Assembly (NCBI GenBank): GCA_934101175.1 | Contig: CAKOQC010000001.1 | Span: forward strand, 199,589 to 263,588 | Direction of reading: 5' to 3' | DNA length: 64,000 bases | Source of the DNA: an uncultured Bacilli bacterium | GTDB taxonomy: Bacteria > Bacillota_I > Bacilli_A > RF39 > UBA660 | In this document: positions 9,251 to 61,222 of the stretch, piece after piece | Layout of the letters: each line of letters opens with the position of its first letter | Numbering within the stretch: the stretch's first letter is position 1 | Position numbers and translations under genes: made by a program | The notes under the pieces: model-generated | Told to the model about the DNA's origin: nothing | Databases searched by the model: none | What the model saw: the letters and a program-made list of their open reading frames with translations, nothing else

Positions 9251-9261
9251 CGTGTTTATAA

Positions 9262-13553: not shown

Positions 13554-13925
13554 CTAAATGATTTTAAAATATTAGTTGCCCATCTTCTAAATTGTGTAGC
13601 TCTTATTGAATTTACTCTATATCCAACAGAGATTATTGCATCTAGATTATAATATTCTGTTTGATACTTCTTACCATCAGCAGCAGTATGTTCCATTTTG
13701 GAACATACTGAATTTTTGTCTAATTCATTATCTTCAAATATATTTAATAAATGCTTTGTAATAGCAGGTCTTTGAACATCAAACAATTCCGCTATTGCTC
13801 TTTGTGTCATCCATAAGGTTTCATTTTCATATCTAACTTGAATACCTTTATCCTTCTCCTGAAGTTTAAATGTTATAAATTCTTCAGTACTACTTCTAAT
13901 AATTAAATCCTTTGCTAATTATATC
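13538..13925 (-). pseudogene. RhuM-family virulence-protein gene remnant (N-terminal ~130 aa only)
   Basis: Frame reads 'LAKDLIIRSSTEEFITFKLQEKDKGIQVRYENETLWMTQRAIAELFDVQRPAITKHLLNIF...AADGKKYQTEYYNLDAIISVGYRVNSIRATQFRRWAT', the conserved RhuM N-terminal domain. There is no ATG at the 5' end (a stop lies immediately upstream), and the protein stops about 200 aa short of full-length RhuM (~330 aa). Confidence 0.5.
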
Positions 13926-21789: not shown

Positions 21790-22218
21790 ATGAACGGAAG
21801 TTATTATAATAATGCATTTCCTAATCAGCCATTAACTGATAATAGTTCTTCTTTTAATAGTTCTACTACTGATACTACTCCTTTTCCTGGAATAGGTCTA
21901 AATAATAATACTATTCCTAATCAGCAGTCTATTCCTCTATCAAATTCTCAGTACACTACTGACTATGACGAGCAATCTTATATTGAAAACATTCTTAGAT
22001 TAAATCGTGGTAAAAAAGCTCGTCTACATGTTACAGTTCCTGGCTCTATCGAATGGCAAGACCGTGTTTTTGATGGTGTAATTGAACAAGCCGGAAAAGA
22101 TCATGTTATCTTATCTAATCCTCAAACTGGTGAATGGTATTTAATATTAATAATATACTTAGACTTTGTTACTTTTGAAGAACCTATCAATTATAATAAG
22201 CAATTTATAAAATACTAA
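21790..22218 (+). CDS. gerQ: GerQ-like spore coat protein
   Basis: N-terminal Q/N/S/T-rich region followed by 'ENILRLNRGKKARLHVTV...QDRVFDGVIEQAGKDHVILSNPQTGEWYLILIIYLDFVTFEE', matching the GerQ/YwdL conserved C-terminal domain. Confidence 0.5.
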   Translation: MNGSYYNNAFPNQPLTDNSSSFNSSTTDTTPFPGIGLNNNTIPNQQSIPLSNSQYTTDYDEQSYIENILRLNRGKKARLHVTVPGSIEWQDRVFDGVIEQAGKDHVILSNPQTGEWYLILIIYLDFVTFEEPINYNKQFIKY

Positions 22219-23626: not shown

Positions 23627-24157
23627 TTATCCATTTATTGTTTTTCTTCTTATCATAGTCATAATATCATCATCTTCTAGCATTCTCTTCATCTTAACAA
23701 TTAGTTTATTATAAAAGGCATTTCCATATATATTAGCATCCCATTTTTCACTAACTTTAGGACTATCCAAGTTATCACCATATCTTAAATATAATAGTTT
23801 TAAATCATTTGGAGTAAGTGCTAGTATAACATTATCTATATCTTCTCTTGAATGTGGACTAAGAAGTTCATATATAGTTTTAATATTACCATTTCCAGGT
23901 ACTTTTTTTCTCTCTTCTAATCTAGTATTATTCATACCATACCCTCTTATTATATCGTCATTTCTATCACGTAAATTTCTTATTGCCTTATCAGGGTTAT
24001 CCATATAAATAGCCATTTTTTCTATTTGTTTATTTCTTCCTAACTTCATTATTGCCTTATTTTCAATTTGTCTTATTCTTTCTTTAGTAACCCCATACAT
24101 ATCTCCTATTTCTTCAAGTGTCATCTTCTTATTACCAGCAATTCCAAATCTAAGCAT
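23627..24157 (-). CDS. sigma-70 region 4 (HTH) plus ~115-aa C-terminal extension; in-frame continuation of the preceding sigma ORF
   Basis: Upstream in-frame reading from TAA(24218-24220) gives 'RETIELINNSNLTEKEKTVLMLRFGIAGNKKMTLEEIGDMYGVTKERIRQIENKAIMKL', sigma region 3.2/4.1-4.2. Only the single TAA separates the two halves. Confidence 0.55.
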   Translation of the reverse strand: MLRFGIAGNKKMTLEEIGDMYGVTKERIRQIENKAIMKLGRNKQIEKMAIYMDNPDKAIRNLRDRNDDIIRGYGMNNTRLEERKKVPGNGNIKTIYELLSPHSREDIDNVILALTPNDLKLLYLRYGDNLDSPKVSEKWDANIYGNAFYNKLIVKMKRMLEDDDIMTMIRRKTING

Positions 24158-24217
24158 TAAAACAGTTTTCTCTTTTTCAGTTAGGTTACTATTATTAATA
24201 AGTTCTATTGTCTCACG

Positions 24218-25429
24218 TTACATATCAGATAATTCTATATCACTATCAAATGAAACTTCATCAGCTGGAATAAGTGTTTCAAGCTCATCATCATAATCAT
24301 CCCCTATTGGTACATTAAGACTAACAGCATCATTTTGTAAATTATATAATTTCTCTGATTCTAAAGTAGAAATTCCTAATTCTAAAGCCATTTCTTTAAT
24401 CGTAGGATTTCTTCCATATGCTGTAGTAAAATCTTGACTAGCCTTTTTATATTGAACAACTTTATTATGTAAGTTAACTGGTATTCTTATTTTTCTTCCA
24501 TAATTAGCTATTGCTCTTGTTAATGCCTGAACTATCCAAAAATAAGCATAAGTTGAAAATCTATAATCTTTGCTTCCATCATATCTTTCTACTGCTTTAA
24601 TTAATCCTAAATTTCCTTCTTGTATTAAATCTTGAAAAGATAATCCTCGTCCCATATATGTTTTAGCTATATTAACTACTAATCTTAAATTACTTTCTAC
24701 AAAGATATTTTTAGCTTCTTCATCACCATTCTTAACTCGGTTATATAATTCTAATTCTTCTTCTTTAGTTAGTAATGGCATTTTTATTTCTTTTAAATAT
24801 AAATCTAATGTATTAACTCCTCTTGTAGAATCATCAGTATTATTATTATTATTTCTTTCTAAATTATCCGTACCATCAAATAATTCTACATTATTAATCA
24901 TACAATACATTCTAATTAAAATAACAAAAGTATCATTATCATATATATCTTCTATTTTCTTTTTCTTTAAAACTTCTTTTTTATTATCTACTATTATTTT
25001 TAAGATATTTTGTAATCTATTATTTTTATTTAGTAATTCCATACATACATCAGGTTCTATAACATATCCTATTTTTGAAAAGAATTCACTTATCATTTTT
25101 AATTGTTTTAAAGCATCATTATATGTTAGACATTCTGTATCAATAAATTCTAAATAATTATTAAATACTTGTTTAAATACACTTTTATTTGTTTTAATAT
25201 ATTTATTTATATATTCTTTTAGTCTTCCTTCAAAGAAAACATTAAACTTTTTCATATCTAATCTATCTATATCTTTAGAAATAGCCATAACAGTAGCTTT
25301 AACTATTCTCTTATACTCAGTTTTATCTATTTTAGCATAACTATATTCTAGATATACTTTTTCTGTTATTGGTTCTAACATATCATATAATTTCTTAATA
25401 TTCTCATTATTATTCTTTTTTTCTTCCAT
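24218..25429 (-). CDS. sigma-70 family RNA polymerase sigma factor, N-terminal part (unique ~230-aa N-domain + regions 2 and 3), ending at an in-frame TAA
   Basis: 'LIQEGNLGLIKAVERYDGSKDYRFSTYAYFWIVQALTRAI...RKIRIPVNLHNK' is sigma-70 region 2.1-2.4/3.0. The ORF ends at TAA 24218-24220, in the same frame as the next ORF. Confidence 0.6.
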   Translation of the reverse strand: MEEKKNNNENIKKLYDMLEPITEKVYLEYSYAKIDKTEYKRIVKATVMAISKDIDRLDMKKFNVFFEGRLKEYINKYIKTNKSVFKQVFNNYLEFIDTECLTYNDALKQLKMISEFFSKIGYVIEPDVCMELLNKNNRLQNILKIIVDNKKEVLKKKKIEDIYDNDTFVILIRMYCMINNVELFDGTDNLERNNNNNTDDSTRGVNTLDLYLKEIKMPLLTKEEELELYNRVKNGDEEAKNIFVESNLRLVVNIAKTYMGRGLSFQDLIQEGNLGLIKAVERYDGSKDYRFSTYAYFWIVQALTRAIANYGRKIRIPVNLHNKVVQYKKASQDFTTAYGRNPTIKEMALELGISTLESEKLYNLQNDAVSLNVPIGDDYDDELETLIPADEVSFDSDIELSDM

Positions 25430-36482: not shown

Positions 36483-37385
36483 ATGAAATATATTACTGCT
36501 ATCTTTGGAATTATCTCTATAATATTTGTTACTATTCTTAATTTTTACCCAGATAAAGTAAGAGATTTTATTGATGAAAAAATATTAAAAAAAGAATTTA
36601 TAATTGCTAAAGCTAATGATTATTATCTTAATAGTAATTTTGAATATTTACAAAATTATACTGATGATGTCTCAAATAAAGAAGAATTATTAAATTATAT
36701 CTATTATGTTGTTAATACCGGAAGTGATTATGCTGATGGTGAATGTACTAAAGAATATACTGATTGTACTAAAGATTTAACTGAAATCAGTGCTGATGAA
36801 GAAGCATTATCTATCATAAATAATTTTGTTCATCCATATAATAGTTTTAAAACAATATCTTTTACTTTCAATAATCAAGGAAAATTCTCTCTTATCATAG
36901 AACACATCTATAGTAAAGAAGAAATAACTGAAATAAACTATATTGTTAATTTAAAAATTCAAGAATTAACTAATGATAAGATGACTAATGAAGAAAAAAT
37001 AAAAAACATTCATGATTTTATCATTAATAATACTGAATATGATCAATTAAAAACTGAAAATATACATGATACTACATACAAATCTAATACCGCATATGGT
37101 GTACTACTTCAAGGATATGGTATATGTAGTGGATATTCCGATACCATGGCAATCTTTTTAAACAGATTAGGTATTACTAATTACAAGATAAGTAATGATA
37201 CTCACATCTGGAATTTAGTATATATAAATGGTATATGGCGTCATCTTGATGCTACCTGGGATGATCCAATAAGTGAATATAATGAAAATCGTGATACTTA
37301 TTTCTTAATCAGTTATGAAGATTTACAAAAACTAGATGATAAAACTCACAATTTTGATAAATCTATCTATAAAGAAGCATACTAA
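36483..37385 (+). CDS. transglutaminase-like cysteine protease superfamily protein (membrane anchored)
   Basis: N-terminal TM helix; 'GICSGYSDTMAIFLNRLGI...HIWNLVYINGIWRHLDATWDD' gives the Cys-His-Asp transglutaminase-like core. Confidence 0.6.
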   Translation: MKYITAIFGIISIIFVTILNFYPDKVRDFIDEKILKKEFIIAKANDYYLNSNFEYLQNYTDDVSNKEELLNYIYYVVNTGSDYADGECTKEYTDCTKDLTEISADEEALSIINNFVHPYNSFKTISFTFNNQGKFSLIIEHIYSKEEITEINYIVNLKIQELTNDKMTNEEKIKNIHDFIINNTEYDQLKTENIHDTTYKSNTAYGVLLQGYGICSGYSDTMAIFLNRLGITNYKISNDTHIWNLVYINGIWRHLDATWDDPISEYNENRDTYFLISYEDLQKLDDKTHNFDKSIYKEAY

Positions 37386-37410
37386 AAGACACTTCCAAAG
37401 TGTCTTTTAT
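37384..37410. terminator. bidirectional intrinsic terminator between convergent genes
   Basis: AAAGACACTT-cca-AAGTGTCTTT perfect hairpin flanked by A/T runs. Lies between the + strand gene ending at 37385 and the - strand giant gene ending at 37432. Confidence 0.6.
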
Positions 37411-37431: not shown

Positions 37432-40400
37432 TTATCTGACATTACGAATAATGACTATTCCTGAACCGCCAGCATAACTAGCAGCTCCACCACCACCTCT
37501 ATTATCAGTACCTTTTGCGTCAGTACCGCCGCCGCCTTTTCCACCACTATTACAAACTGTTCCAAGTGTAGAATTGTAGTAGCAATGTTGAGCACCAGAA
37601 CCACCGCCAGAATAAGCATAATCATCACCGTTAGTGCATCCAGAAGTAGTACCCTCACCAAATTCACAAGTGGTTGTCCATTGACCTTTACCACCAGATG
37701 CTCCATTTACATACATACTACTACTGCCACCGCCGCCATTGGTACCATAAGAACCGCCTGAGCCGCCGCCATCATAACCATAATTATATGAAGCTTGACC
37801 GCCGCCACCTGAGCCACCAGCTCCGCCAGCACCGGAACCCGGAGAGCCGCCATTAGCGAAATATAATGTTTTATCATCGAAATAACTTATATTGCCAGCA
37901 ACACCAACAGCTCCACCAGCTCCAACTACAATCGAATATTCTTTAGCAGTTAAAGTTATATTTTTATATGTATTAGTATATCCACCACCACCACCGCCAC
38001 CAACATTTCCGCCTCCGCCGCCACCAACCAAGAAGGCATCAATTACTACACTATCACTAAATTTCAATGTTCCACTAGTTAAAAACTTAATTCTCCAATT
38101 ATTATTACTGTCATTTACTACTTCACAATTTCCGGTATAAGTCATGTATGGATTAGTACCCGCTGAATTGTTGGCACACTTATAATTTGATATTAACATT
38201 GAATATGTATATTTTGTTGTATTAATTGTAATAGTATTATTAATAGTATTAGTATTTCCAACTTTATCAGTAATCTTAACGCACACTCTATAAGTACCTG
38301 ATAATGTAGTATTAAATGTATATTGTGCATTATTGCTAGTTGTGTATCCATTAGTAGGACAACTACTTTCTGTTGTTATTAAATATCCATAATTTTTTAT
38401 TCCACTACCAACGTCACTAGCAGATATTACAGCAGTAATAGTATTATTTTTAGCAGTTAAAGCAATTGTTCCTGTAGGCTTAGTATTATCTACATAAAAT
38501 GGATTTGATATTGTTTTTGTACATTTTCCATTAACATCACAAGCTTGAACTATTAAATAATATGTTCCAGTAGCTGCTTTTAACTGATATGAATTACCTG
38601 ATGTAAATCCTACTGATGGGGCAGTATTTTTATCTTTAGAATAAATATACTTAAATGTTGATGAATTTAATTCATTACTTCCCTTACTTACATTTATTTT
38701 GCTAGAAATATCTCCACTTACATAACTAACATTACCATTTGGATTAAAGGCTATTACTGGGTTAGTACTTGCAGTCCAGTGAGCATATATTGTTTGATTA
38801 GTTGCTGCAATTATACTTGTTGATGCAGTAATCAATGTTCCACCATTTGCTTGAGTATACCAACCCGAAAAACTATATCCATCTCTTATCGGTGTACATA
38901 ATTCCCCATAAACATTTCCATTTATAATCGTTTTTGATGAACATCCTGAACCACCATTATTATTATACGTAATAATTAATGAATCAACATTCAAAGAAAT
39001 TGCAGTTATTCTTGCGGCCCCTGCTCCACTTTTTGCATAATTAGTAGTAGGTGTTGATGATACATTAGTAGTAGTATATGTCTTAGTAGCAGTATCACTT
39101 GATGCCGTACAATTATAGCAATACATATATTTATCTGTAAGTAAACTATTTCCTATATAGCCGGAACCTCCTGCTCCACCTTTAACACCACCGACTCCGC
39201 CGCCATAATACCCGCCGCCAGCTCCACCGCCACCATATCCGCCATTATCACCAGTCGAAGAATCGGCAGAAGCACCTAAACCAAATTTACCAGTATATGT
39301 TGAATTATTACTTCCAGCATTCAAAACACCGTTGGATATTCCTTGTCCACCAGCTGTTTGTGTTCCTCCCTTACCATAATGATTAGTTGTAGTCCATGAA
39401 CCTAATTTATCTATTATTGGTGGCATACCTTTTATACCACCACCAGATCCACCTGATGAATAAGCATAGCTACTATCAGACCAATACCAACTACTACCAC
39501 CACCACCAGATCCAGCAACAATTAAAATATTACTAGTTTTTGAAGATAATGTTGATAAAAGTCCGCTAACTATAGCTATGTGTGTTGCTCCGCCGCCGCC
39601 GCCACTATTAGTAGAAGAACCTTGTGTATAGCCGGAACCGCCTCCATTATAGCCGCCAGTTGTAATACCTACTGTCCCATTTATTCCGCTTGTGCCTTGA
39701 CCTCCTATATTTATGTATAATTTATCACCCTTTTCTAAATTTACCTTTCCTGTTGAATATCCTCCATATCCTCCTAGATAACTATTTGCAGATCCACCTT
39801 GTGCTCCCCACACTTCTAATTTATAAGTTCCAGTAGTTGGCACTGTATAAACTTGTTCAGTACCACTATACCCAATTTCTTCATAGTCACCATTAGAAAA
39901 TTTTGTATAATTATAATCAGTTGAAATAAATGATATTTTTGCATGTCCATTTCCTTGTTTAGAACAATTTTCTGTAGCAGCTGCATTTGTACATGTTGTA
40001 GATATTGTTTTTGTAGAATAACTTCCAGATTCCGTACAATTATAACAATACATATATTTATCAGTAAGTAAATCATTTCCGATATAACCTGAGCCACCGC
40101 CGCCGGCTCCAACACCATTGTCAACGATACCACCGCCGCCACCACCGTAATATCCACCGCCGCCGCCAGCTCCAAAATAAGCACTATTTCCTCCTAGGCC
40201 AAATGTTCCAGCACTACCATTTCCCGCTCCTGTTCCACCGGAACCACCACCAGTTTGAGTTCCCGGATATGCTAATCCAGGAGAAACAGTCCCTGCATAT
40301 AAGCCTTGATTACCACTTATACCGCCACCAGAACCGCCTCCTCCAGAATAATTAGACCACACAGCTTTTCCACCACCGCCGCCGGCAACAATTAATATAT

Positions 40401-43400
40401 TACTAGTCTTTGAAGATAATGTTGATAAAAGCCCACTAACTGTAGCTATATGCGTTGCTCCGCCGCCGCCGCCACTTACACCATAATTTGATACACCGGT
40501 GCCGCCTCCATTATATCCACCAGTTGTATCTGTTGTCGTGCTGCCAATATTGACATATAAAATTGTGTTTTTCTCCAAATATACTAAGCCTTTTGAATAA
40601 CCACCATATCCACCTGAAACGCCACCTTGTGCTCCCCATACCTCAAGTTTATAGTAACCTGATACAGGAACAACATATGTATATTCTCCACTATCTGAAT
40701 ATTCCGTAGGTATCCCCACATGAATTATACTATCCGAAATTACAGTTTCATTTTGAACATTATCAATAATTTTTGCACATACATAATATGTTCCTGAAGT
40801 CCCCACATTGAAAGTATAAACATTATTATTACTCTTTGTATATCCAGAAGTAGGACAACTACTATCTGTTGTTATTAAATATCCATATTCTTTTATTCCA
40901 CTTCCATTATCATGAGCATTTATTGTTATATCAATACTACCAGTACTGTTAGAAGCTAATGACAACGTCCCCGTTGGTGATTCATTATCAACATGAAATG
41001 GATTTGATACATTCTTTGTACAATTTCCATTAACATCACAAGCTTGCGCTATTAAGTAATATATCCCTGTTGCTGCTTTTAATTGATATGAACTACCTAA
41101 AGTAAATTCTACTGAAGGGGTAGTATTTTTATCCTTAGAATAAATATACTTAAATGTTGATGAATTTAATTCATTGCTTCCTTTACTTACATTTATTGTG
41201 CTAGAAATATCTCCGCTTACATAACTAACATTACCATTTGGATTAAAGGTTACTACTGGATTAGTACTTGCAGTCCAATGAGCATATATTGTTTGGTTAG
41301 CTGTAACCGTTACACTTGTTGATGCAGTAATTTGTGTTCCTCCACTTGCTTGAGTATACCAGCCAGCAAAACTATATCCATCTCTCACTGGGGTACATAG
41401 TTCTCCATATGTACTACCATTTACTATTGTTTTTGAATAACAACCTAATCCACCATTATTATTATACGTAAGAATTAATGAAGCAGCATTCATATAAAAT
41501 GTAGCAGTTATTCTTGCTGCTCCATTTACGCTCTTTGCATAATTAGCAGTAGGTGTTGCTGATACATTAGTAGTGGTATTTGTCTTAGTAGCAGTAGCGG
41601 TAGATGTTGTGCAATTATAGCAATACATATATTTATCTGTAAGTAAACTATTTCCTATATAGCCTGAACCACCACCACCGCCTGCGCCATGGCCACCACC
41701 ACCGCCGTAATATCCGCCGCCACCACCGCCACTCCAAGAATTTCCATTTCCACCTTGTCCAAAACTTCCATTATCGCCATAGTTTCCTTTACTTCCACCA
41801 GTTGTTTGCGTTCCTCCTGTTGGATTTTTATAATTTGATGTTGAACTTATTGCATTATTACCTATATAGCCACCACCGGAACCACCTGAAGAAGAATTAT
41901 TATCTCCAACTACACCGCCGCCGCCACCGCCGGCTGCTATTAATATATTGCTAGTTTTTGAGGATAACGTTGATAATAGTCCGCTAACTGTGGCTATATG
42001 GGTTGCACCGCCGCCGCCACCGCCAGAATATGTTGTAGAGCCACTAACTCCACCGCCATTATAGCCCCCGTTAGTAACCTCACCCTTACCACCAACATTT
42101 ATATATATTATATCGTCTTTTGACAAATTAACATTTCCTACGGAATACCCTCCATAGCCCCCTATATATGTACTATTTGCACTTCCGCCTTGAGCGCCCC
42201 ATACCTCTAATTTATAGATTCCAGTTTTCGGTATTGTATATGTCTGTTCTCCACTAGTAGTATATAATTGATTAACATTAATGTAACTATATTTAACACC
42301 AATTGATGATAAATAAGCGATATTACCAGCTTTGTCAGTTAACTTTATACAGCCATAATATGTGGCATCATTCGTATAACTTCCAGAATATTCTTTTGAT
42401 ACTCCTGTTTGATTTGCATACGTAGCAGCACTACAATTACTATTCGTAGTTAAAGCAAAACCATACGTTCCAGTTAATCCTGAACCATCATCACCTTGAT
42501 TAGATAATTTTAAAGTAAACTTACCATTAGTTAATGACAATGATGCTGTTCCATATGGTAAAACATTATCTTTCCATTTTGCATATAATGTCTGATTAGC
42601 TGTGGTTGTTACTTTAGTGCTATCTGTTATTTTAGTACCTGTTCCTTTTTCGCCAGTATACCATCCATCAAAGGTAAATCCTAATCTTTTAGGTATTGGT
42701 AGCGATCCATAAGTACTTCCATATGCTACGTTTTTAGTATCATTCTTAATAAAGTTGACTTTTATCTTATAATTAGTAAATGTTTGTTTAGCAGGTTCTT
42801 TCGCCCACATCCAAAATCTAAAACCAGATCCATCAGTACCTGCTAAATCACTTGCAGTAAGTGTAATAGATTTGCTTCCACTTGTAAAGTATGTTAAGCC
42901 CTCAGCGTTTCTTGTCGCTAAATTACCAGTGCCAGCAGCATTAGCTACATCTACTACAAATGATGGCACCCCTGTTCCGGTATATGCATAACTACCTGAT
43001 ACATAAGTAATTGTCAGTGTATATTTATCGCCTGATGTAAAACTTAATCCTGTAAAATTTGTTAACAACGATGATGTTGAAGTAGGTGTTCCATTTATAG
43101 TTAAATATGAATTATCATAATCATATGTTAAAGTTAGACCATTTATTGTTTTACTTGTAGTACTAAACATATTACCATTAAAATCTACTTTATATGTATT
43201 TGCGGTCCATTTAGCATATAATGTTACATTACTTGTTTTATCAAAATTTTTTGCTGATGTACCACTTGCTGTATAATATTGTGTTCCGCTACCATTTTTC
43301 TCACTGTAATAACCATTAAAGGTATAGCCTGTTTTACTTGGTTTTGTTATGCTTGGCATTGCACTTTGATATGTTGCTGTAACCGATGTTGTACCAGCAC

Positions 43401-46305
43401 TCGTAGCACCTTGATTATCTAATGTTACGGTATATGTACTTGCTTTCCAATTTGCATATAAAGTAATTGATGATGTTGGTGTATAACTTGCACCTTTATC
43501 ACCTATCTTTGTACCTCCACTACTTGCATTATACCAACCATTAAAGGTATATCCTGCTCTTGTTGGTACTGTTTGACTTAATGTTATTGTTTGATTATAT
43601 GTATTTATACCGCCACTCTTAGACACATATGTCCTTTTTGATGTTTGATTACTTGGTGCTCCACTTCCTCCATTAGCATTATAACTAACAGTAAATGTCT
43701 TCTCATATATCGCATATAATGCATTTGTACCTGTTCCTAGTGGTACTCTCCTATAATCATTGGAATAATTAGAAGAATCATATGTCCATGCTACATAACT
43801 AGCTCCATCATAACTACTTGGTACTACCTCTGCTTCACTTAAAGAATTATTATAACTTGTTCCATCACTAAGCATTCTTCTTGTTACTGTTTTACTTACA
43901 TGACTACTGCCATTATAATAATAAAAAGTTAATGGTTCTGTATATACAGCATAAAATTTTGTATTAGCTGTTGAAGGTGTAACTATTGTTGCACTATTTA
44001 TAGCAGTTGCCACCCCAATATAGTTTTCAGCTGATGCTCCACCTGTACTAGTTGTTACTGCACTAGGAACAGTATAATTAGATTGAATATATGTTCCTTT
44101 ATAATTCATATATCTTATAGCAGTAGTTGTTACACTAGCTTGTGTACCACTTTTATATATGTAATCATCTTTTGTTAATTTTGAATAATAAAATGTTCCC
44201 GTTATGGTAGTTTGATATGAAGCATAATAAGTTTGATCAGCACTAAGAGTAACTGTTTTTCCACTAGTTACTGCTACATTAGCATTACCAGTATTACTTG
44301 TACTCCATCCTCTAGCTGTATAGGTAACACTACTTACAGTTTGATTACCAATAGTAGGTGTCGTTATTGTTGCCGTAGTGGCTCTATTATAAATAGTACT
44401 AGATACTTTAGTATTCTGATTATTATAGTAATTAAAAGTTCCCGTTATAGTCTTTTTATAAATGGCATATAAAGTTATATTGCTTGTTCCCATTTTTAAG
44501 GTACTTAAACCACTCGTAGCATCTTTATTTGTATTCCAACCAACAAAAGTCCAATTAGACTTTGTTGCTGTTGGTGTTAAATCTATATTAGCATTATAAT
44601 TCACATTAGCACTTGTCTTAGTAGCCCCACTACCACCATTAGTGGCATAATCATAAGTTACGATATAGCTATTAACACTCCATTTAGCATATAACACTAT
44701 GTTACCAGTTTGCGTAGATGATATTTTAGTTACTGCATTACCACTACCATCTTGTGTTAAATACCAACCACTAAAAGTATAACCTGTTTTGCTTGGATTA
44801 ACTAAAGTAGTTTCTTTCCCATATGTATATTTTATTGGATATCCATTTCCATGAGTTCCTGTAAATGTAGTATTTCCGACATCTTTATAACTAATAGTAT
44901 ATGTATTTACTGTCCATTTAGCATATAGTACTAATTCTCCTGAATGTGTACTACCATCTATTTCAGTAATTGCCGTTCCACTACCATCTTGTGCTAAGTA
45001 CCAGCCATTAAAGGTATAACCTGTTTTACTTGGATTAACTAATTTTGTTATACTCTTTGTAGTATATGTAAGAGGATAATTATCTCCATGTACTCCACTA
45101 AATTCAGTACCTCCTACATCTTTATAAGTTATTGCATAAGTTTTGACTGCATCTACTGAAATATTATCAGATACTGTTTCAATATTATGGTTATTTACTT
45201 TATCACTTAACTTATCTTTAGGTAGAGTAATTGTAGTTTCTCCTGAAGTATTTCCTCCTACTACTGTAAGAGTATATTTATATCCATTAGTAATATTACT
45301 TTTCTCTACTTTACTAATAGTTATTATATTATTTGAAATAGTAAAATCACTTACTACTAGATCTTTAGATACCATACCAGTTTCACTATCTGTACATAGT
45401 AAACTAATCGTTGCAGTTTCTTTTTCATCTAGATTATTTTTACTAATATTATCCCACGTACATACAGGTCCTGTTATATCTATCTTATCTACATTTAAAT
45501 TTTTACTAATTATTTTATTATTCTTATCTTTAAACCATATATAATATGTTCCAGTATTATTAACTGTATATTCTAAATTATAGATATTATTCTGTTCATT
45601 CTCAGGAATACTTATCCATGTACTAGGTTCTGTATTACTATCAGTTACTTGATATCCTATGATTTTCTTACCAGAATTAACTGCTATAGCTTTAATAATT
45701 TGATAGTTATTAGTTAATTTTGTTATTTCAAATTTATCTACTACTATTTGATCTACTTGTGTCCATATAGATACATCGGCTGTTTCTCCTGTCATAGAGC
45801 TATCTGCTAATGTTTCATCTAACCAGATCCATATCGTATATTCTGTTAAAGTAGTAGTTACTTCAAAATTAGGAAGTATTGCCATTTCACTACCAGTAGA
45901 TAATAAAGAAAAATTTCCACTTGCTAATACTTTACCATTACTAGTAGCATTACCTAAAGTAACTGTCCACTTTAATGCTTCACTATTATTAAGATTTTCT
46001 CCTATCTCTTTTACTTTCATATTAATAGTAGCATATAGCATCTTATCACTTATTTTATCACTTTTATAAATAGATACTGTAGTATGTACTCCAGAAGTAT
46101 AACTAGTTCCTACTTGAAAGTCTCCAACAAATTTAGATTCTCCTGAATCATAAATTATATATTCTTGTAATCCTTTACTAGTATTAAATACTACTTCTTT
46201 ATTTTCTCCACTTCTCCATGAAAAGTATGCAAATGTACTTCCAAGTAATATCATTATTACTCCAAGTACCATAAGTAATATCAATGTTTTATTCTTCTTA
46301 TTCAT
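37432..46305 (-). CDS. giant (2957 aa) secreted or surface repeat protein: SipW-type signal peptide, Ig-like domains, >=8 Listeria-Bacteroides (Flg_new) repeats, and four glycine-rich modules
   Basis: N-terminus 'LILLMVLGVIMILLGSTFAYFSW' resembles SipW-cognate signal peptides. Repeated '[ST]GY[TS]F.GWY......LYAKW' units are Listeria-Bacteroides repeats. Three roughly 300-aa modules read 'YTIPKTGIYKLEVWGAQGG...GGGGGATHIATVSGLLSTLSSKTSNILI.AGGGGG...GGGGGYYGGGGG...SGYIGNSLLTDKYMYCYNCT'. No LPXTG motif. Confidence 0.8.
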   Translation of the reverse strand: MNKKNKTLILLMVLGVIMILLGSTFAYFSWRSGENKEVVFNTSKGLQEYIIYDSGESKFVGDFQVGTSYTSGVHTTVSIYKSDKISDKMLYATINMKVKEIGENLNNSEALKWTVTLGNATSNGKVLASGNFSLLSTGSEMAILPNFEVTTTLTEYTIWIWLDETLADSSMTGETADVSIWTQVDQIVVDKFEITKLTNNYQIIKAIAVNSGKKIIGYQVTDSNTEPSTWISIPENEQNNIYNLEYTVNNTGTYYIWFKDKNNKIISKNLNVDKIDITGPVCTWDNISKNNLDEKETATISLLCTDSETGMVSKDLVVSDFTISNNIITISKVEKSNITNGYKYTLTVVGGNTSGETTITLPKDKLSDKVNNHNIETVSDNISVDAVKTYAITYKDVGGTEFSGVHGDNYPLTYTTKSITKLVNPSKTGYTFNGWYLAQDGSGTAITEIDGSTHSGELVLYAKWTVNTYTISYKDVGNTTFTGTHGNGYPIKYTYGKETTLVNPSKTGYTFSGWYLTQDGSGNAVTKISSTQTGNIVLYAKWSVNSYIVTYDYATNGGSGATKTSANVNYNANIDLTPTATKSNWTFVGWNTNKDATSGLSTLKMGTSNITLYAIYKKTITGTFNYYNNQNTKVSSTIYNRATTATITTPTIGNQTVSSVTYTARGWSTSNTGNANVAVTSGKTVTLSADQTYYASYQTTITGTFYYSKLTKDDYIYKSGTQASVTTTAIRYMNYKGTYIQSNYTVPSAVTTSTGGASAENYIGVATAINSATIVTPSTANTKFYAVYTEPLTFYYYNGSSHVSKTVTRRMLSDGTSYNNSLSEAEVVPSSYDGASYVAWTYDSSNYSNDYRRVPLGTGTNALYAIYEKTFTVSYNANGGSGAPSNQTSKRTYVSKSGGINTYNQTITLSQTVPTRAGYTFNGWYNASSGGTKIGDKGASYTPTSSITLYANWKASTYTVTLDNQGATSAGTTSVTATYQSAMPSITKPSKTGYTFNGYYSEKNGSGTQYYTASGTSAKNFDKTSNVTLYAKWTANTYKVDFNGNMFSTTSKTINGLTLTYDYDNSYLTINGTPTSTSSLLTNFTGLSFTSGDKYTLTITYVSGSYAYTGTGVPSFVVDVANAAGTGNLATRNAEGLTYFTSGSKSITLTASDLAGTDGSGFRFWMWAKEPAKQTFTNYKIKVNFIKNDTKNVAYGSTYGSLPIPKRLGFTFDGWYTGEKGTGTKITDSTKVTTTANQTLYAKWKDNVLPYGTASLSLTNGKFTLKLSNQGDDGSGLTGTYGFALTTNSNCSAATYANQTGVSKEYSGSYTNDATYYGCIKLTDKAGNIAYLSSIGVKYSYINVNQLYTTSGEQTYTIPKTGIYKLEVWGAQGGSANSTYIGGYGGYSVGNVNLSKDDIIYINVGGKGEVTNGGYNGGGVSGSTTYSGGGGGGATHIATVSGLLSTLSSKTSNILIAAGGGGGGVVGDNNSSSGGSGGGYIGNNAISSTSNYKNPTGGTQTTGGSKGNYGDNGSFGQGGNGNSWSGGGGGGYYGGGGGHGAGGGGGSGYIGNSLLTDKYMYCYNCTTSTATATKTNTTTNVSATPTANYAKSVNGAARITATFYMNAASLILTYNNNGGLGCYSKTIVNGSTYGELCTPVRDGYSFAGWYTQASGGTQITASTSVTVTANQTIYAHWTASTNPVVTFNPNGNVSYVSGDISSTINVSKGSNELNSSTFKYIYSKDKNTTPSVEFTLGSSYQLKAATGIYYLIAQACDVNGNCTKNVSNPFHVDNESPTGTLSLASNSTGSIDITINAHDNGSGIKEYGYLITTDSSCPTSGYTKSNNNVYTFNVGTSGTYYVCAKIIDNVQNETVISDSIIHVGIPTEYSDSGEYTYVVPVSGYYKLEVWGAQGGVSGGYGGYSKGLVYLEKNTILYVNIGSTTTDTTGGYNGGGTGVSNYGVSGGGGGATHIATVSGLLSTLSSKTSNILIVAGGGGGKAVWSNYSGGGGSGGGISGNQGLYAGTVSPGLAYPGTQTGGGSGGTGAGNGSAGTFGLGGNSAYFGAGGGGGYYGGGGGGIVDNGVGAGGGGSGYIGNDLLTDKYMYCYNCTESGSYSTKTISTTCTNAAATENCSKQGNGHAKISFISTDYNYTKFSNGDYEEIGYSGTEQVYTVPTTGTYKLEVWGAQGGSANSYLGGYGGYSTGKVNLEKGDKLYINIGGQGTSGINGTVGITTGGYNGGGSGYTQGSSTNSGGGGGATHIAIVSGLLSTLSSKTSNILIVAGSGGGGSSWYWSDSSYAYSSGGSGGGIKGMPPIIDKLGSWTTTNHYGKGGTQTAGGQGISNGVLNAGSNNSTYTGKFGLGASADSSTGDNGGYGGGGAGGGYYGGGVGGVKGGAGGSGYIGNSLLTDKYMYCYNCTASSDTATKTYTTTNVSSTPTTNYAKSGAGAARITAISLNVDSLIITYNNNGGSGCSSKTIINGNVYGELCTPIRDGYSFSGWYTQANGGTLITASTSIIAATNQTIYAHWTASTNPVIAFNPNGNVSYVSGDISSKINVSKGSNELNSSTFKYIYSKDKNTAPSVGFTSGNSYQLKAATGTYYLIVQACDVNGKCTKTISNPFYVDNTKPTGTIALTAKNNTITAVISASDVGSGIKNYGYLITTESSCPTNGYTTSNNAQYTFNTTLSGTYRVCVKITDKVGNTNTINNTITINTTKYTYSMLISNYKCANNSAGTNPYMTYTGNCEVVNDSNNNWRIKFLTSGTLKFSDSVVIDAFLVGGGGGGNVGGGGGGGYTNTYKNITLTAKEYSIVVGAGGAVGVAGNISYFDDKTLYFANGGSPGSGAGGAGGSGGGGQASYNYGYDGGGSGGSYGTNGGGGSSSMYVNGASGGKGQWTTTCEFGEGTTSGCTNGDDYAYSGGGSGAQHCYYNSTLGTVCNSGGKGGGGTDAKGTDNRGGGGAASYAGGSGIVIIRNVR
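38330..39200. repeat. intragenic long direct repeat, copy 1 (~870 bp, ~90% identical to 40830-41700)
   Basis: Aligning the text directly shows near-identical runs such as 'gcagtattttt atctttagaataaatatacttaaatgttgatgaatttaattcatt' at 38620 and again at 41120, exactly 2500 bp apart. Confidence 0.7.
39511..39605. repeat. three-copy ~95-bp direct repeat (also at 40391-40485 and 41940-42030) encoding 'GGGGGATHIATVSGLLSTLSSKTSNILI'
   Basis: 'attactagt(t/c)tttgaagataatgttgataaaag(t/c)cc(g/a)ctaact(a/g)tagctat(g/a)tg(t/c)gttgctccgccgccgccgcc' recurs three times. Confidence 0.7.
40830..41700. repeat. intragenic long direct repeat, copy 2
   Basis: See copy 1. The unit encodes the Ig-like domain plus the Listeria-Bacteroides repeat. 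Confidence 0.7.
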
Positions 46306-46533
46306 ACACTTACACTCCCAAAAAAATCCTCAAGTATTCTACTTGATAATTCTTGAAAAGTGTTATAAACCCTTGAAAATACTGACTTTATCTAAAATAT
46401 ATTGGAATTTAAAAGTATATTTTTTCTTACAAAAATATAACTGTAAATATTGCATAATCCCTTTATTTATAGTATAATTTAATCATAGTAAAAAATAATA
46501 AAGTAGAATACTTTATAACTTTTTAAGTCATAC

Positions 46534-46567
46534 TAAAAGACACCAATCAAAAGTGTCTTTTTTTCTA
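46534..46567. terminator. intrinsic terminator hairpin (AAAGACAC...GTGTCTTT + T7)
   Basis: Perfect 8-bp stem followed by TTTTTTT, downstream of the minus-strand gene ending at 46575. This separates it from the giant gene's promoter region. Confidence 0.5.
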
Positions 46568-46574
46568 TTCATAA

Positions 46575-47177
46575 TTATTCTGTAGCAATAATAGTAATAT
46601 CATCTATTAACCAACGATTATCTACAAGTACTACTCTTATTGTAGCTAAAGTATTCTTACTATTACTAGTCCATTTCTCATAAATAATTCCATTTATTTC
46701 TTTATCTAAAGCAGATGTAATACTAATCTTTGTATTATCTCCTCTAAAATAATATGTTTGATAAGTAACTAAATTACCTGCTAAATAATATCCATTTTCA
46801 GTATAAGCAAAATAATTTCCTAAATCAGAAATATATTTCTTTATTCCATTTTCAGTAAATAAATTATTCATAACTTCATCAAAATTAGTTATCTTTTTAT
46901 AAGTAATATCTCCAATAACTATAATATCATCTTGACTAACTTTAAATTTGTTATTAACAACATCATATAGTATTCTAACATTATCATAAAGTCCTTTAAT
47001 AATAGCTATTTCCTTATCATTATTATTAGTATCACCAATAACTGTATTATTATCAATTAAAGACTTATTTTCATTACCTTTAGCTAAAAAGAAATCAGCT
47101 ATAAAATAAAATAATACAAATAATACTATTAATATTAACATTCCTATTTTATTCATTTTCTTCATAATTCTAATCAC
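46575..47177 (-). CDS. hypothetical membrane-anchored protein (200 aa)
   Basis: N-terminal TM helix; no recognisable domain. Confidence 0.4.
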   Translation of the reverse strand: MIRIMKKMNKIGMLILIVLFVLFYFIADFFLAKGNENKSLIDNNTVIGDTNNNDKEIAIIKGLYDNVRILYDVVNNKFKVSQDDIIVIGDITYKKITNFDEVMNNLFTENGIKKYISDLGNYFAYTENGYYLAGNLVTYQTYYFRGDNTKISITSALDKEINGIIYEKWTSNSKNTLATIRVVLVDNRWLIDDITIIATE

Positions 47178-56559: not shown

Positions 56560-57477
56560 ATGTTAAATATCTTTAAATGGTTCTTTCTAGGACTATACAC
56601 AGTTATTACCATTATCCCTCGTTATTTAATAATAGGTATTATATGTATTATTAATCCTAAAAAAGGTAACATACTAAGATATAAAGGTAAACCAGTAATC
56701 CCTATCATAATTATTACTCTCTGCCTAACAGTATACTTTATCTGTATCTTTATATCTTCCAGGTGGTATGTTCAAAATCTAAAAATCAAGTATCTTTCTA
56801 GTGATATCATCTCAAGTACTAAAGTCTTAGAACAAGAACAAAAAGAAATTATAAGTAAAGAAGAATATAATCCTAAAGATAACGATAAATATTCTGATGT
56901 TTCTTTCATCTCTGTAAACTTTGATGATTTAATTGCTAAGAATAATGAAACTGTTGGTTGGATTAAAGTAAATAATACTAATGTTAATTATTCTATTTTA
57001 AAACATACTGATAATGAATATTATTTAAAACATGATTTTAATAAAAATTATAATATTTATGGTTGGGTTTTTGCTGATTATCGTGATGACTTTGAATATT
57101 TTGGTAATAATACTATTGTCTATGCTCACAATATGACTGATAGATCAATGTTTGGTTCTTTAGTATGGTGTCTAAAAGAATCATGGTATACTAATAATGA
57201 AAATCAATTTATTAAAATATCTACTCCTAAATCTAACACTGTTTGGAAAATATTCTCTATTTATACTATAAAACCAGAAGTATATTATTTAAAAACCTAC
57301 TTTGAATCCCCTGAAGAACATCAAATCTTCCTAGATGTCTTAAAAGGTCGTAGTATTCATAATTTTAATGAAGATGTAACTCCAAATGATAAAATTCTAA
57401 CGTTATCTACTTGTTCTGATGATGGTACTAAAAGAGTAGTTATTCATGCTAAAATGGTTAAAGTAGAATATCGCTAA
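56560..57477 (+). CDS. srtB: class B sortase
   Basis: N-terminal membrane anchor; catalytic 'IVYAHNM' His and 'TLSTCSDDG' (TLxTC) Cys motifs typical of SrtB. Confidence 0.75.
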   Translation: MLNIFKWFFLGLYTVITIIPRYLIIGIICIINPKKGNILRYKGKPVIPIIIITLCLTVYFICIFISSRWYVQNLKIKYLSSDIISSTKVLEQEQKEIISKEEYNPKDNDKYSDVSFISVNFDDLIAKNNETVGWIKVNNTNVNYSILKHTDNEYYLKHDFNKNYNIYGWVFADYRDDFEYFGNNTIVYAHNMTDRSMFGSLVWCLKESWYTNNENQFIKISTPKSNTVWKIFSIYTIKPEVYYLKTYFESPEEHQIFLDVLKGRSIHNFNEDVTPNDKILTLSTCSDDGTKRVVIHAKMVKVEYR

Positions 57478-57525
57478 AAAAATAGGACTAACTTTTAAAG
57501 AAGTCCTATTTTATTTTACTCAAAA

Positions 57526-59091
57526 TTATTTCTTTTTCTTTTTCTTATTACTCTTATTAACTACTTGCTTATCAGTATTATCTTCTACTTCTGCTGTTTC
57601 TTTCTCCAATTTCTCATCAGTCTTTATTTCCAAACTCTCATCCTTTATAGGTAAATCATCAAAAGAAAACTTATCCTCATTCTCACTCGTATCTTCTTTC
57701 ATAGTATCCACTATCTCTTTAGGTTTATTCTCTTTAACTAAGTTAACTTTCTTCTTATTTTTCTTTCCCTTTCCTATTAGAATAATTGAAAATAATACTA
57801 TTACTAATCCTAATAATAAGATACTACCAAGTAAACAAATATAATATTTATCACTCTGTTCTTTATATAAATCTAATACCAAAGTATTATATCTTTGAAC
57901 AGTCTTTTCTTTAGCATCATATTGATATAATTCCTCTTTACCAGTTTCAATATTCTTTGCATAAAACAAATAAAACTGATTACCAGATATATCATTATTA
58001 TCAAGAGCATAAGTATTCTTAATAATATCTAATTTAACCTCTTGATAACTATCTATTTTATCTCCATCATAAGTAAATGTTGTCTTCTTACCACCATCTA
58101 CTACTTTATCTAATATTTGTAAAGTAGTACCATTAAAAGTATATTCTAAATATCTAATATATTTATTATTAGCATATATATAATACTCTATCTTTCCATT
58201 AGTATCTTTAAGTCCTACTACAGTATATTTTAAAGTATCATTATAATATCCTTCTACTTTCTCACCTTTAATATCTACTTCTTTTTCACAGAAATATTCA
58301 CTTATTTTAGGTAAATCTTTTCTTTTTCTAACTACATTATAAGTATTATTATCTATTTTTACTTGAATTGGTTTCTCTGCTTCTACTGTTACTTTTAAAA
58401 CATAAGTTCTCTTACTTCCATTTTCTGCTGTAACTACTATTTCAAATGTATTTAATCCTTCACTAACATTAACTTCTCCAGTACCTGTAGCTTTAGCAGA
58501 ATCTTCTGCTAATTGAGCATTAATTTTAATCTTTTCTGTATTAGCAGGTACTGTTAAAGTATATTCAAGACTTTCTTTATCAAAATTCTCATTAAGTTCA
58601 AAACCATCTACTGTTAAACTAGCTAAATAACTATTTGAAGATTTTGGTCTAGGTTTAGAACTAGATCCTCCATTTGATGAACTTCCTCCATTATTACCAG
58701 TATTATTACTAGGTTTTGGATTAACTGTAATATTAACAGTTCTAGCTGGTAATGTTATATCCTTAGGATCATCTGTTGCTGTTGTCTTACTAGAAGTTAT
58801 TGTTAAAGTAGCTGTCCCCGTATTCTTCGTATTAATAGTAATATATTGTGTATCATTTTCTACCCACACACTTGCTACCGCCGGACTAGCTACATTCGCA
58901 TTAGAAGATGTAATATTAAATCTTCCTGCTACATTATTTCCTGTTATTCTTAAAGTAACCGTATTCCCAACTACTACAGTATCACTAGTAAGTGATATAC
59001 TATAATCTGCTGCAAATACACTATTAGTAAATCCAAACAGTACCACTAGTCCCAATATTAAACTATTCTTAATCTTATTTATAATTTTCAT
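57526..59091 (-). CDS. type I membrane surface protein with Ig-like and cadherin-like beta-sandwich domains
   Basis: Signal peptide; 'SNSYLASLTVDGFELNENFD...YTLTV...GSKRTYVLKVT' cadherin-like domain (also present in the next gene); C-terminal TM helix followed by a K/E-rich cytoplasmic tail ending in K7. Confidence 0.55.
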   Translation of the reverse strand: MKIINKIKNSLILGLVVLFGFTNSVFAADYSISLTSDTVVVGNTVTLRITGNNVAGRFNITSSNANVASPAVASVWVENDTQYITINTKNTGTATLTITSSKTTATDDPKDITLPARTVNITVNPKPSNNTGNNGGSSSNGGSSSKPRPKSSNSYLASLTVDGFELNENFDKESLEYTLTVPANTEKIKINAQLAEDSAKATGTGEVNVSEGLNTFEIVVTAENGSKRTYVLKVTVEAEKPIQVKIDNNTYNVVRKRKDLPKISEYFCEKEVDIKGEKVEGYYNDTLKYTVVGLKDTNGKIEYYIYANNKYIRYLEYTFNGTTLQILDKVVDGGKKTTFTYDGDKIDSYQEVKLDIIKNTYALDNNDISGNQFYLFYAKNIETGKEELYQYDAKEKTVQRYNTLVLDLYKEQSDKYYICLLGSILLLGLVIVLFSIILIGKGKKNKKKVNLVKENKPKEIVDTMKEDTSENEDKFSFDDLPIKDESLEIKTDEKLEKETAEVEDNTDKQVVNKSNKKKKKK

Positions 59092-59102
59092 TCTATCACT
59101 TC

Positions 59103-61082
59103 CTATTGTACTATCTTCTTAACATCCATAATGTCATTCTTAATCATCATATAATCTGTTGCTGTTATCTTTCCATCACGACTAACATCTGCACATACTT
59201 TCTCTAATTCATTAAGTTTCTTAACATCCATAATATCATTCTTAATCATTATATAATCTGTTGCTGTTATCTTTCCATCTCCATTAACATCTCCATATAT
59301 AATAATCGTATACCTCTTCTCTTCACGATCAGTCTTAATATTAATTACATCTCCAGAAGCAATAATACCATTCTTTTTTATCTTTCCATCTTTTGAAGAT
59401 GCTGTTACTACTGCTTTACTCTCTTTATCTGTAATACTCTTAATAATACTACTAATATCTGTTTCTAATTCATATCCATATATATAATTACCATCATTCT
59501 TAATATTTAATGTTCTAAGTATTTCACTTATATCTAAAGAAACATCTACATTTCTTGTTATATTTATTTTATAAGTTCTAGTACTTCCATTTTCTGCTGT
59601 AACTATTATTGGTATTTCTTGTTTTTCTCCCTTTAATGCTATACTACCAGTTCCACTAATAGTAGATCTATTAGATACTTTAGTAGCATCTATTACTATT
59701 GATGATGATGTTGTATCCAAGTTCAAATGAAATATTGTTTGATGTGTAGCACTCTCAAATAAGTAATTTCCATTAACAGATAAACTAGATAAATAATTAT
59801 TTGGGTTTCCTTTACTAGGTAAGCTTGTACTACTAGGCATATCTTTAAATACTGGTATTATAAAAGTAAATCCACTATTAATTAAATTAACATTATTATA
59901 ACTTGCATATGTCTTATAAGATTCACTTGCAGGAGCCTGTATATTTTGCATATATTGGTGTCTTCCATACATTGGTCCAAACAAATCCCACTTCTGTAAA
60001 TATAATGTATTTTGTCCTTGATCTATATAATCATTAACTAAAAATTTAGCTCCTCCTACTACTGCTTTATAAGGTGTCGACCAATCTTGTTCTTTAGCAT
60101 AAGCTAGTCCATTACGTATAGTCTCATCATTTGTATTACCAAAAGCTTTAATATTATAGAAATTATAATATCCTTCATAACCAGATACACTACCACTAAC
60201 AATAGTACTACCATTTGCTCCTACTTCCTGAATAACTCTAGATACTAATAAGAATGGATTGACATTATATGTCTTAGCTCCCTCTATAAAGGCATCAGCA
60301 TAACTTAACTTATTCTCCTCATCAGCCATCTTACCATCCATAAAAGTCCCTTTAAGAGCTAATTCTACTCCTTCTTTAGTATGATAATTCTCATTAAAAG
60401 TTAATGGTTCAAACATAAATATCTGTTGATCATTTAAGAAGTTTCTTGGATCTAAATAATATCCTATTACTTGCTTATTAGCAGCATACCATCTATATCC
60501 TCCACCTTCATAATTATTTCTAAATACATTATTTAAATAATTATAAGCCCAACTATCAGTAGATTTATATCCATCATAATCACTACCATAGTCTTCAATT
60601 AAACTCCATCCTTGTGAATACCCATCATATTCAAGAGATATCATCTTATCAAAAGTAATATCTACATTCATTACTTGAAATTTCCATTCAGGATGTCTTT
60701 TATGTAATTCTAATAAATAAGGTATATAACTATCAGGAAATCCTAATTTATTTAAATATTCTTTATATTCATTATCATCTATTTTAGTACTATCATCTAA
60801 TTTTAATATAGCAAAATCACTACATATATATCCTTTAGTACCATTATATTCTGCCTTATACCAAGGCCCACTACATCCTAGTCCACTCTTACTTTCTATA
60901 TAAGTAAGTTCATCTCCTTTATTAAGTTCTGTAATTATTCCACTATCTGTAGTACTATCGGTTCTAAATCTAACACTATATCCATTTATTATAACTTTAC
61001 TACTAGCGTATACTTGAATAGAAAAACAGCAAAATGCTATCAAAAATATTCCAATATATGACATTTTTCTCATTCTATACAC
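59103..61082 (-). CDS. SH3-like + GH73 glucosaminidase (autolysin-type) + cadherin-like domain + C-terminal dockerin
   Basis: Signal peptide. 'YSVRFRTDSTTDSGII...GDELTY' is SH3b-like. 'YADAFIEGAKTYNVNPFLLVSRVIQEVG' is the GH73 glucosaminidase core. The C-terminus carries two 'DVNGDGKITATDY..IKNDIMDV' Ca-binding dockerin repeats. Confidence 0.65.
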   Translation of the reverse strand: MYRMRKMSYIGIFLIAFCCFSIQVYASSKVIINGYSVRFRTDSTTDSGIITELNKGDELTYIESKSGLGCSGPWYKAEYNGTKGYICSDFAILKLDDSTKIDDNEYKEYLNKLGFPDSYIPYLLELHKRHPEWKFQVMNVDITFDKMISLEYDGYSQGWSLIEDYGSDYDGYKSTDSWAYNYLNNVFRNNYEGGGYRWYAANKQVIGYYLDPRNFLNDQQIFMFEPLTFNENYHTKEGVELALKGTFMDGKMADEENKLSYADAFIEGAKTYNVNPFLLVSRVIQEVGANGSTIVSGSVSGYEGYYNFYNIKAFGNTNDETIRNGLAYAKEQDWSTPYKAVVGGAKFLVNDYIDQGQNTLYLQKWDLFGPMYGRHQYMQNIQAPASESYKTYASYNNVNLINSGFTFIIPVFKDMPSSTSLPSKGNPNNYLSSLSVNGNYLFESATHQTIFHLNLDTTSSSIVIDATKVSNRSTISGTGSIALKGEKQEIPIIVTAENGSTRTYKINITRNVDVSLDISEILRTLNIKNDGNYIYGYELETDISSIIKSITDKESKAVVTASSKDGKIKKNGIIASGDVINIKTDREEKRYTIIIYGDVNGDGKITATDYIMIKNDIMDVKKLNELEKVCADVSRDGKITATDYMMIKNDIMDVKKIVQ

Positions 61083-61222
61083 CTACTTCCTATTATTAAA
61101 TAATTATATCAAAAAATATTATATTTTACCACCCTTATTTATCACTTTACACATAAAAAATCTATAAGCCTCTTTTTAATATAACTCATATAGAGTTTCT
61201 ATTAATAAATTTCTTATAGATT

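Follow-up and report, generated by a model that had tools for sequence, protein, structure and literature searches.

The 64-kb window analysed here, a stretch of DNA from an uncultured, gut-type Bacilli bacterium, carries on its minus strand (positions 37432–46305) an uninterrupted open reading frame (ORF) of 2957 codons, exactly as the original prediction had stated. It begins with ATG and ends with a stop codon at 37432–37434, and the same 2957-amino-acid (aa) protein was called on the source 230-kb ENA metagenome scaffold (ERZ28614378 scaffold_30). As the surrounding genome has a GC content of ∼ 26%, a stop-free frame of 8.9 kb is not a chance product. The encoded giant protein combines an N-terminal export signal and a conserved N-terminal module with a long repetitive stalk, three glycine-rich domains (GRD1 to GRD3) of the type found in the receptor kinases ALK and LTK, and a further glycine-rich domain at its C-terminus (Table 1).

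The three GRDs, ∼ 266–306 aa each, share 54–62% identity with one another and all contain the motifs EVWGAQGG, ATHIA[TI]VSGLLSTLSSKTSNILI and YMYCYNCT, in agreement with the threefold repeat described originally. In the hidden Markov model (HMM) search that had been proposed as a check, the Pfam profile PF12810 (ALK_LTK_GRD) scored 281.4 bits on the whole protein in three stretches, and all three modules exceeded its gathering threshold (24.5 bits); membership was assigned at near full-length profile coverage, which all three display. A sequence search of a 90%-clustered collection recovered at least 3,085 homologues. A structural model of GRD1, predicted with a confidence (pLDDT) of 96, superposes on ALK, with its TNF-like beta-sandwich and Gly-rich lattice, and structural alignment of the modules with the metazoan ALK/LTK domain gave 36–38% identity. 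In this model, 65% of the residues are neither helix nor strand at a pLDDT above 90, and 64 of the 70 glycines are among them. Its structural neighbours are known polyproline-II (PPII) bundle proteins, the nearest ones outside ALK being phage fibre proteins. Thus, the fold assignment is solid: the three modules are compact 'TG' domains, each a TNF-like sandwich joined to a polyglycine-II (PGII) lattice, as had been proposed for the glycine tracts, with the PGII geometry taken over from these matches.

Seven segments between the conserved Gly motifs vary from 1 to 24 residues in length among GRD homologues, and it is mainly in these segments that the three copies differ from one another. In contrast, they share an identical or nearly identical 23-aa core, ATHIA[TI]VSGLLSTLSSKTSNILI, although its 'STLSSKTSN' part varies in other species. 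At the DNA level, the three core copies differ at many synonymous sites; the identity is thus not due to recent gene conversion and points to purifying selection on the scaffold. The CxxC of the YCYNC motif (aa 1562/1565, 2087/2090 and 2396/2399) is invariant in all 99 sequences of a GRD homologue alignment (C222 and C225 in its query) and could form either a vicinal disulfide or a metal site.

Table 1. Features of the giant gene and its product, with positions in the 64-kb window
Feature	Residues	Window position	Strand	Remarks
Whole gene, 2957-aa exported multi-domain protein		37432–46305	−	
Sec-type signal peptide or signal anchor	1–26	46228–46305	−	
Conserved N-terminal module, predicted jelly-roll beta-sandwich	27–190	45736–46227	−	Motif NK.VVFNTSK..YI.Y..GESKF.GDF ... 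LKW ... WIWLD
Two Ig-like beta-sandwich domains	191–390	45136–45735	−	Cys pair in each; Big_12 sub-threshold, 20.6 bits vs 27
Stalk with six Pfam-significant Flg_new (Listeria-Bacteroides) repeats	391–1250	42556–45135	−	Cores at aa 429, 508, 585, 918, 993, 1209
Ig-like domain	1251–1340	42286–42555	−	Big_13 sub-threshold
GRD1, TNF-like plus PGII glycine-rich module	1341–1606	41488–42285	−	PF12810 profile positions 6–242 of 243; copy modelled
Flg_new repeat and two Ig-like domains	1607–1860	40726–41487	−	Core at aa 1643; Cys pairs in the Ig-like domains
GRD2	1861–2130	39916–40725	−	PF12810, 99.8 bits, profile positions 7–243
GRD3	2131–2436	38998–39915	−	PF12810, 113.1 bits, profile positions 6–242; longer variable loops
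Flg_new repeat and two Ig-like domains	2437–2700	38206–38997	−	Core at aa 2476
C-terminal Gly_rich_2 domain	2701–2957	37435–38205	−	PF21722, 34.6 bits in whole protein, 41.8 bits alone; cutoff 24.3
23-aa core of GRD1	1434–1456	about 41938–42006	−	
23-aa core of GRD2	1950–1972	about 40390–40458	−	
23-aa core of GRD3	2240–2262	about 39520–39588	−	
Shine-Dalgarno-like GGGAG		46315–46319	−	9 nt 5' of ATG; read directly from the sequence
12-bp hairpin, likely bidirectional terminator		37383–37409		Between convergent stops of the giant gene and a transglutaminase-like gene

At the C-terminus, a divergent fourth copy of the module had been proposed. A glycine-rich domain does occupy aa ∼ 2700–2957 but its kinship to the GRDs is not established: by sequence it is Pfam Gly_rich_2 (PF21722), which it matches over profile positions 15–224 of 226 when aa 2697–2957 are scanned alone, and its homologues (at least 1084) all belong to PF21722. 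A comparison with the GRD using hhalign gave a probability of 57% over 59 aligned columns, the BLAST similarity to the GRDs is of the low-complexity type only, and PDB sequence and profile searches with this domain returned noise only.

The stalk bears out the expectation of at least eight Listeria-Bacteroides repeats. Flg_new (PF09479) scored 292.4 bits in eight stretches (Pfam E-value 7e-89) and TIGR02543 (List_Bact_rpt) 156.6 bits, likewise in eight; the eight cores follow the motif G[YF][TS]F.G[WY]. The region of aa 391–1250 also holds about three degenerate repeat-like units (aa ∼ 620–880) and an insert of ∼ 160 aa without assignment (aa 1037–1198). Ig-like domains had been placed immediately after the signal peptide; that position is taken by the ∼ 160-aa jelly roll, and the Ig-like segments lie further on, are beta-rich and reach only sub-threshold scores with Big_12, Big_13 and Big_7. 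Each of them has a Cys pair, and the 30 Cys residues of the protein form 15 close pairs. Residues 2386–2682 duplicate residues 1552–1850 at 77% identity. PDB sequence searches with the insert and with an Ig-like pair gave nothing significant, and profile scans revealed no kinase, EGF, MAM or LDLa domain in the protein.

The signal at aa 1–26 is tripartite, with the n-region MNKKNK, the h-region TLILLMVLGVIMILLG and the c-region STFA followed by a candidate cleavage site, TFA↓YFSW; the only hydrophobic segment of the protein is at aa 3–30. Its end resembles the SipW-cognate motif, and a SipW-type signal peptide had been predicted, a claim that was not sustained. TIGR04088 (SipW-cognate) gave 11.5 bits (E-value 0.26, cutoff 19) on the first 40 aa and nothing on the full-length protein. 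The window's ORFs of 90 aa or more contained no Peptidase_S24 or Peptidase_S26 match, and none was found within 10 kb of the giant gene or of its relative P0157 (see below). The predicted fold of the N-terminal domain is a jelly roll of the generic kind. The prepilin motif GF..E is absent from the N-terminus (MNKKNKTLILLMVLGV...), which has no PF07963 match. The absence of LPXTG and other wall anchors was corroborated: LPxTG/NPxTG (LP.T[GAS] or NP.T) occurs nowhere in the protein, no known wall-binding domain was detected, and there is no hydrophobic segment at the C-terminus, which ends ...GSGIVIIRNVR. The sortase B reported at 10 kb corresponds to a class-B-like ORF at 56560–57477 (plus strand) whose TIGR03064 score, 151.4 bits, lies just under the cutoff of 153.75.

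The N-terminal module (aa 27–190), a beta-sandwich predicted at pLDDT 82–92, has only about 55 detectable homologues. It is conserved, jointly with the motif G[ST][YF]A[YLF][WF][ST]W ending the signal helix, in several contexts: it is followed in some relatives by Ig-like and Flg_new domains, in P0175 directly by a GRD and in proteins of 619–644 aa by an unrelated domain of ∼ 430 aa. Being the only part common to relatives with quite different passengers, the module seems to be a shared unit for the export, attachment or assembly of exchangeable passengers. In a spore-forming relative (locus L001, a 985-kb contig), positions 8233–11920 include the gene for the 639-aa protein P0157, which has the same signal and N-terminal module and an unrelated passenger without a Pfam match. 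This locus is partly syntenic with window positions 37432–47177, retaining the transglutaminase-like, ZnuA-LysM, RNase III and ABC genes and an orthologue (65% identity) of the small transmembrane protein encoded at 46575–47177; the P0157 gene lies between this orthologue and the transglutaminase, ZnuA-LysM and RNase III genes. By sequence comparison, the two loci look like a case of passenger swapping on a fixed N-terminal module. The ORF at 46575–47177 was considered as a dedicated partner and rejected, as the ORF upstream of the closest orthologue, in locus L083, is unrelated; it is therefore a syntenic neighbour. That orthologue, P0121 (L083 4247–7192, ENA ERZ28573684 scaffold_17866), is 91% identical to the giant over aa 1–387 and ends at the contig edge. 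It is found in another genomic context, directly 3' of two prepilin-type genes (MKKKKNNKGFTLIELLAVV... and ...KKGFMMAEVIVV...), and lacks about 500 aa of the stalk (giant aa ∼ 545–1035); stalk length thus varies between close strains.

The gene is richer in GC than the rest of the window (0.347 versus 0.259), a difference that had been ascribed to its glycine codons. This explanation is correct: without the 459 Gly codons the value drops to 0.274, and the GC content at third codon positions (GC3, 0.145) is near that of housekeeping genes. The high GC content therefore reflects composition, and horizontal transfer as its source is ruled out. The window also includes a GerQ spore-coat gene (21790–22218), which indicates that the organism is, or was, a spore-former. 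The host species is not among the GTDB representatives, as the best GTDB match is only 54% identical.

The family to which the GRDs belong is very large. In a 50%-clustered collection we found 16,735 GRD representatives at an E-value of 1e-3 or better, among them giants of 2,000–7,700 aa with 5–14 GRD stretches. The relatives come mostly from metagenome-assembled genomes (MAGs) of uncultured Bacilli or 'Tenericutes' from human (Hadza), rabbit and ruminant (rumen) guts, with outliers in Bacteroidales, Saccharibacteria and Clostridia. Pfam PF12810 already takes in bacteria, and the NCBI name of the relatives is 'glycine rich domain-containing protein'. The fold is therefore not new, nor is the architecture of a giant with several copies of it; the combination of the N-terminal module, three GRDs and Gly_rich_2 is rare, yet is a domain shuffle, and the single protein is not exceptional within this class of candidate adhesins. 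Most relatives are proteins of 300–460 aa with one GRD and other N-termini, whereas the giant has its specific jelly-roll N-terminus, three GRDs and the Gly_rich_2 end. The single-GRD proteins of uncultured Bacilli/Tenericutes gut MAGs share the GRD itself (50–58% identity) and its motifs, and some of them also have Flg_new or Ig-like domains. Prepilin N-termini (PF07963, G↓FTLIE) precede a GRD (PF12810) in P0059, P0087 and P0097 and Gly_rich_2 (PF21722) in P0330, which suggests GRD-tipped pilins or pseudopilins in uncultured Bacilli.

With the receptors ALK and LTK (PDB 7LRZ, 7N00, 7NX3, 7NX1 and 7LIR) the giant shares only the TG domain. Unlike them, it lacks a receptor tyrosine kinase as well as any MAM, LDLa or EGF context, and its sole hydrophobic segment is N-terminal; its modules are smaller (266–306 aa) and come as three tandemly dispersed copies on a bacterial Flg_new/Ig stalk. 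The invariant YCYNC CxxC and a C-terminal strand region, TKT..TT...P..NYAK.GNG, are typical of the bacterial GRD clade, and the ALKAL cytokines, ligands of ALK and LTK, are metazoan. The phage counterparts, tail fibre gp24 of cyanophage Pam3 (PDB 7YPX/7YFW) and the 'tail wing brush' gp33 of mycobacteriophage Bxb1 (PDB 9D93), are only ∼ 21–22% identical to the module. The Pam3 fibre tip consists of a TNF-like and a glycine-rich domain, serves in host-receptor recognition and resembles Caenorhabditis elegans ALK (PMC9608196), and PPII-helix bundles have been described in Pam3 and in Bxb1 gp33 and gp29 (PMC13243192). Pam3 gp24 is a subunit of a trimeric fibre and requires a dedicated chaperone, whereas the giant's module is internal and repeated within one Sec-exported cellular protein that has no conserved chaperone-like partner gene. 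With the adhesin tips of the Salmonella phage S16/T2-type gp38 (PDB 6F45) there is a common design principle, a rigid PGII lattice presenting hypervariable loops; the kinship to gp38 originally suggested was not upheld, as the GRD model gave no structural match to 6F45. Listeria internalin-type and Bacteroides surface proteins share the Flg_new repeats, and NCBIfam models of InlA and InlH match partially in the repeat regions, but the giant has no leucine-rich-repeat domains and no LPXTG or GW anchors and scores 114.6 against an internalin model cutoff of 1600.

We read the giant, with a probability of roughly 0.6, as an extracellular, adhesin-like protein of great length that binds a ligand and belongs to an uncultured member of the Bacillota, low in GC and spore-forming (a Bacilli-type MAG lineage). 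Of the receptor-binding or adhesin role put forward originally, an ALK-type ligand-binding fold on an exported protein has held up, and the role itself is suggested by analogy with ALK/LTK and Pam3 gp24. The protein would be exported by the Sec pathway, its N-terminal signal then being cut off after Ala26 (T-F-A↓Y) or, alternatively, remaining in the membrane as an N-terminal anchor. The ∼ 160-aa jelly roll is a candidate surface holder or assembly unit in a protein with neither a sortase signal nor a second transmembrane segment nor any known wall-binding domain. Some 8–11 Flg_new repeats and about seven Ig-like domains, almost every one with a bracing Cys pair, would form an extended stalk that displays, in its distal half, the three TG modules, so assigned from the HMM matches and the ALK-superposing model, and the terminal Gly_rich_2 domain. 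By analogy, the invariant Gly motifs would make up a rigid core and the variable segments exposed, ligand-recognizing loops, and three non-identical heads could provide multivalent or multi-specific binding. The modules are regarded as binding heads because in ALK/LTK this fold binds ALKAL cytokines and in Pam3 host receptors, because conserved Gly motifs alternate with length-variable segments, because the three copies diverge in these loops around an identical 23-residue core, and because the GRDs of homologues sit on prepilin N-termini or other anchors, like a portable tip module.

Several points weigh against this interpretation. The PGII geometry and the surface position of the variable loops are derived from the match to ALK, and the loops could owe their variability to relaxed constraint instead of ligand recognition. 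The genes around the giant are housekeeping genes that give no functional hint, and among 80 related GTDB loci we found no conserved partner gene (chaperone, pilus or secretion) around the GRD genes, only further GRD genes recurring there. In the searchable full-text literature there was no functional study and no ligand, localization or expression data for any bacterial PF12810 protein; a search on the function of PF12810 or of bacterial GRDs brought up a fungal genome paper without relation to the subject.

Other explanations start from particular parts of the protein. If the signal were truly of the SipW type, the cleaved jelly roll might polymerize by TasA-style donor-strand exchange and the giant would be a subunit of GRD-decorated fibres or matrix. 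As in TasA and CalY (camelysin), a G-x-T-F-A-[FY]-F-S-like motif at the end of the hydrophobic helix is followed by a beta-sandwich domain, but the giant remains below the TIGR04088 cutoff, has no sequence match to Peptidase_M73/TasA and no sipW nearby, and its mature form is about ten times larger. We consider this explanation unlikely. Distinctly unlikely, in our view, is a receptor-binding protein derived from phage or used in antagonism, whose GRD heads would recognize other bacteria for inter-bacterial targeting or as a phage decoy. The nearest structures outside ALK do come from phage fibres, and PHROG families 7388, 1589 and 5811 match GRD1 (E-values 5e-34 to 9e-28) as phrog_2295 matches the Gly_rich_2 domain (1e-12); yet the GC3 is native, no phage, toxin or immunity genes lie nearby, and the Sec signal and the architecture are those of a cellular surface protein. 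A tblastn search with GRD1 of 50,697 annotated phage genomes gave no match, a negative that is probably weakened by low-complexity masking, since the PHROG HMMs do match. The four PHROG families, annotated as 'unknown function', would probably merit annotation as TNF-like/PGII receptor-binding fibre modules.

That a spore-former might use the giant as a structural protein of the spore surface, like the exosporium nap protein BclA with its TNF/C1q-like head and Gly-rich stalk, is very improbable. Exosporium and coat proteins are assembled in the mother-cell cytoplasm and are not known to carry Sec signals, whereas the giant has a clear N-terminal signal or anchor; the likeness to BclA is limited to a generic TNF-like sandwich, and collagen-like GXX repeats are absent. 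Finally, the modules are 25–28% Gly and the BLAST similarity of the C-terminal domain to them is, as noted, of the low-complexity type, so that the glycine-rich stretches could be seen as disordered spacers and the domain matches as compositional artefacts. Because an alignment of 99 GRD homologues contains many invariant non-glycine residues, the GRD similarity is not compositional; for the three PF12810 modules this idea is effectively refuted, it could formally apply only to details of Gly_rich_2, and as a whole its probability is negligible.

In a bolder version of the adhesin interpretation, the bacterial TG modules would be functional heads for ligand binding, with direct homology to the domain by which metazoan ALK/LTK bind cytokines. 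This is doubtful. If true, the glycine-rich domain of ALK/LTK would derive from a bacterial or phage receptor-binding module, and gut Bacilli would use many TG copies, on stalks, on pilins and behind the N-terminal module, as a programmable adhesin scaffold analogous to the gp38 and gp24 tips; in a still stronger form, the proteins would, through a TasA-like N-terminal signal and module, be the subunits of surface fibres of a new type. Ordered PGII-helix domains are rare in the structural record. In uncultured Bacilli of the gut and rumen, those of the ALK type are abundant, with over 16,000 sequence clusters, and are borne on long stalks, pilins and other anchors. The reviews that we found name only ALK/LTK, a few phage fibre tips, snow-flea antifreeze proteins, Obg and acetophenone carboxylase, and those on PPII bundles contain no bacterial cellular example. 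Modules of 266 aa predicted at pLDDT 96 would offer an easily expressed bacterial model for the folding of PGII lattices and for loop presentation, and would be useful for asking where the ligand-binding domain of ALK/LTK originated. For microbiome biology, they mark out a large class of candidate adhesins.

Elsewhere in the window, a sigma-70 (RpoD-like) gene (23627–25429, minus strand) is broken by an in-frame TAA at 24218–24220 (...DIELSDM*RETIELINNSNLTEKEKTVLMLRFGIAG), which separates region 3 (ORF 24218–25429) from region 4 (ORF 23627–24157), the latter ORF running ∼ 137 aa past region 4; this could be a pseudogene, an assembly error or a case of readthrough. At 13538–13810, what looks like a remnant of a gene for a RhuM-family virulence protein covers 90 aa. 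The class-B-like sortase adjoins a cluster of surface-protein genes (56560–63220 with the sortase), of which ORF 57526–59091 encodes a Cadherin-like domain and ORF 61223–63220 a Bact_surface_Ig-like and a polysaccharide deacetylase domain. Between them, ORF 59103–61082 combines SH3_3, a SagB-like glucosaminidase region, a Cadherin-like domain and a type I dockerin, the last of these being unusual in a Bacilli-type MAG.

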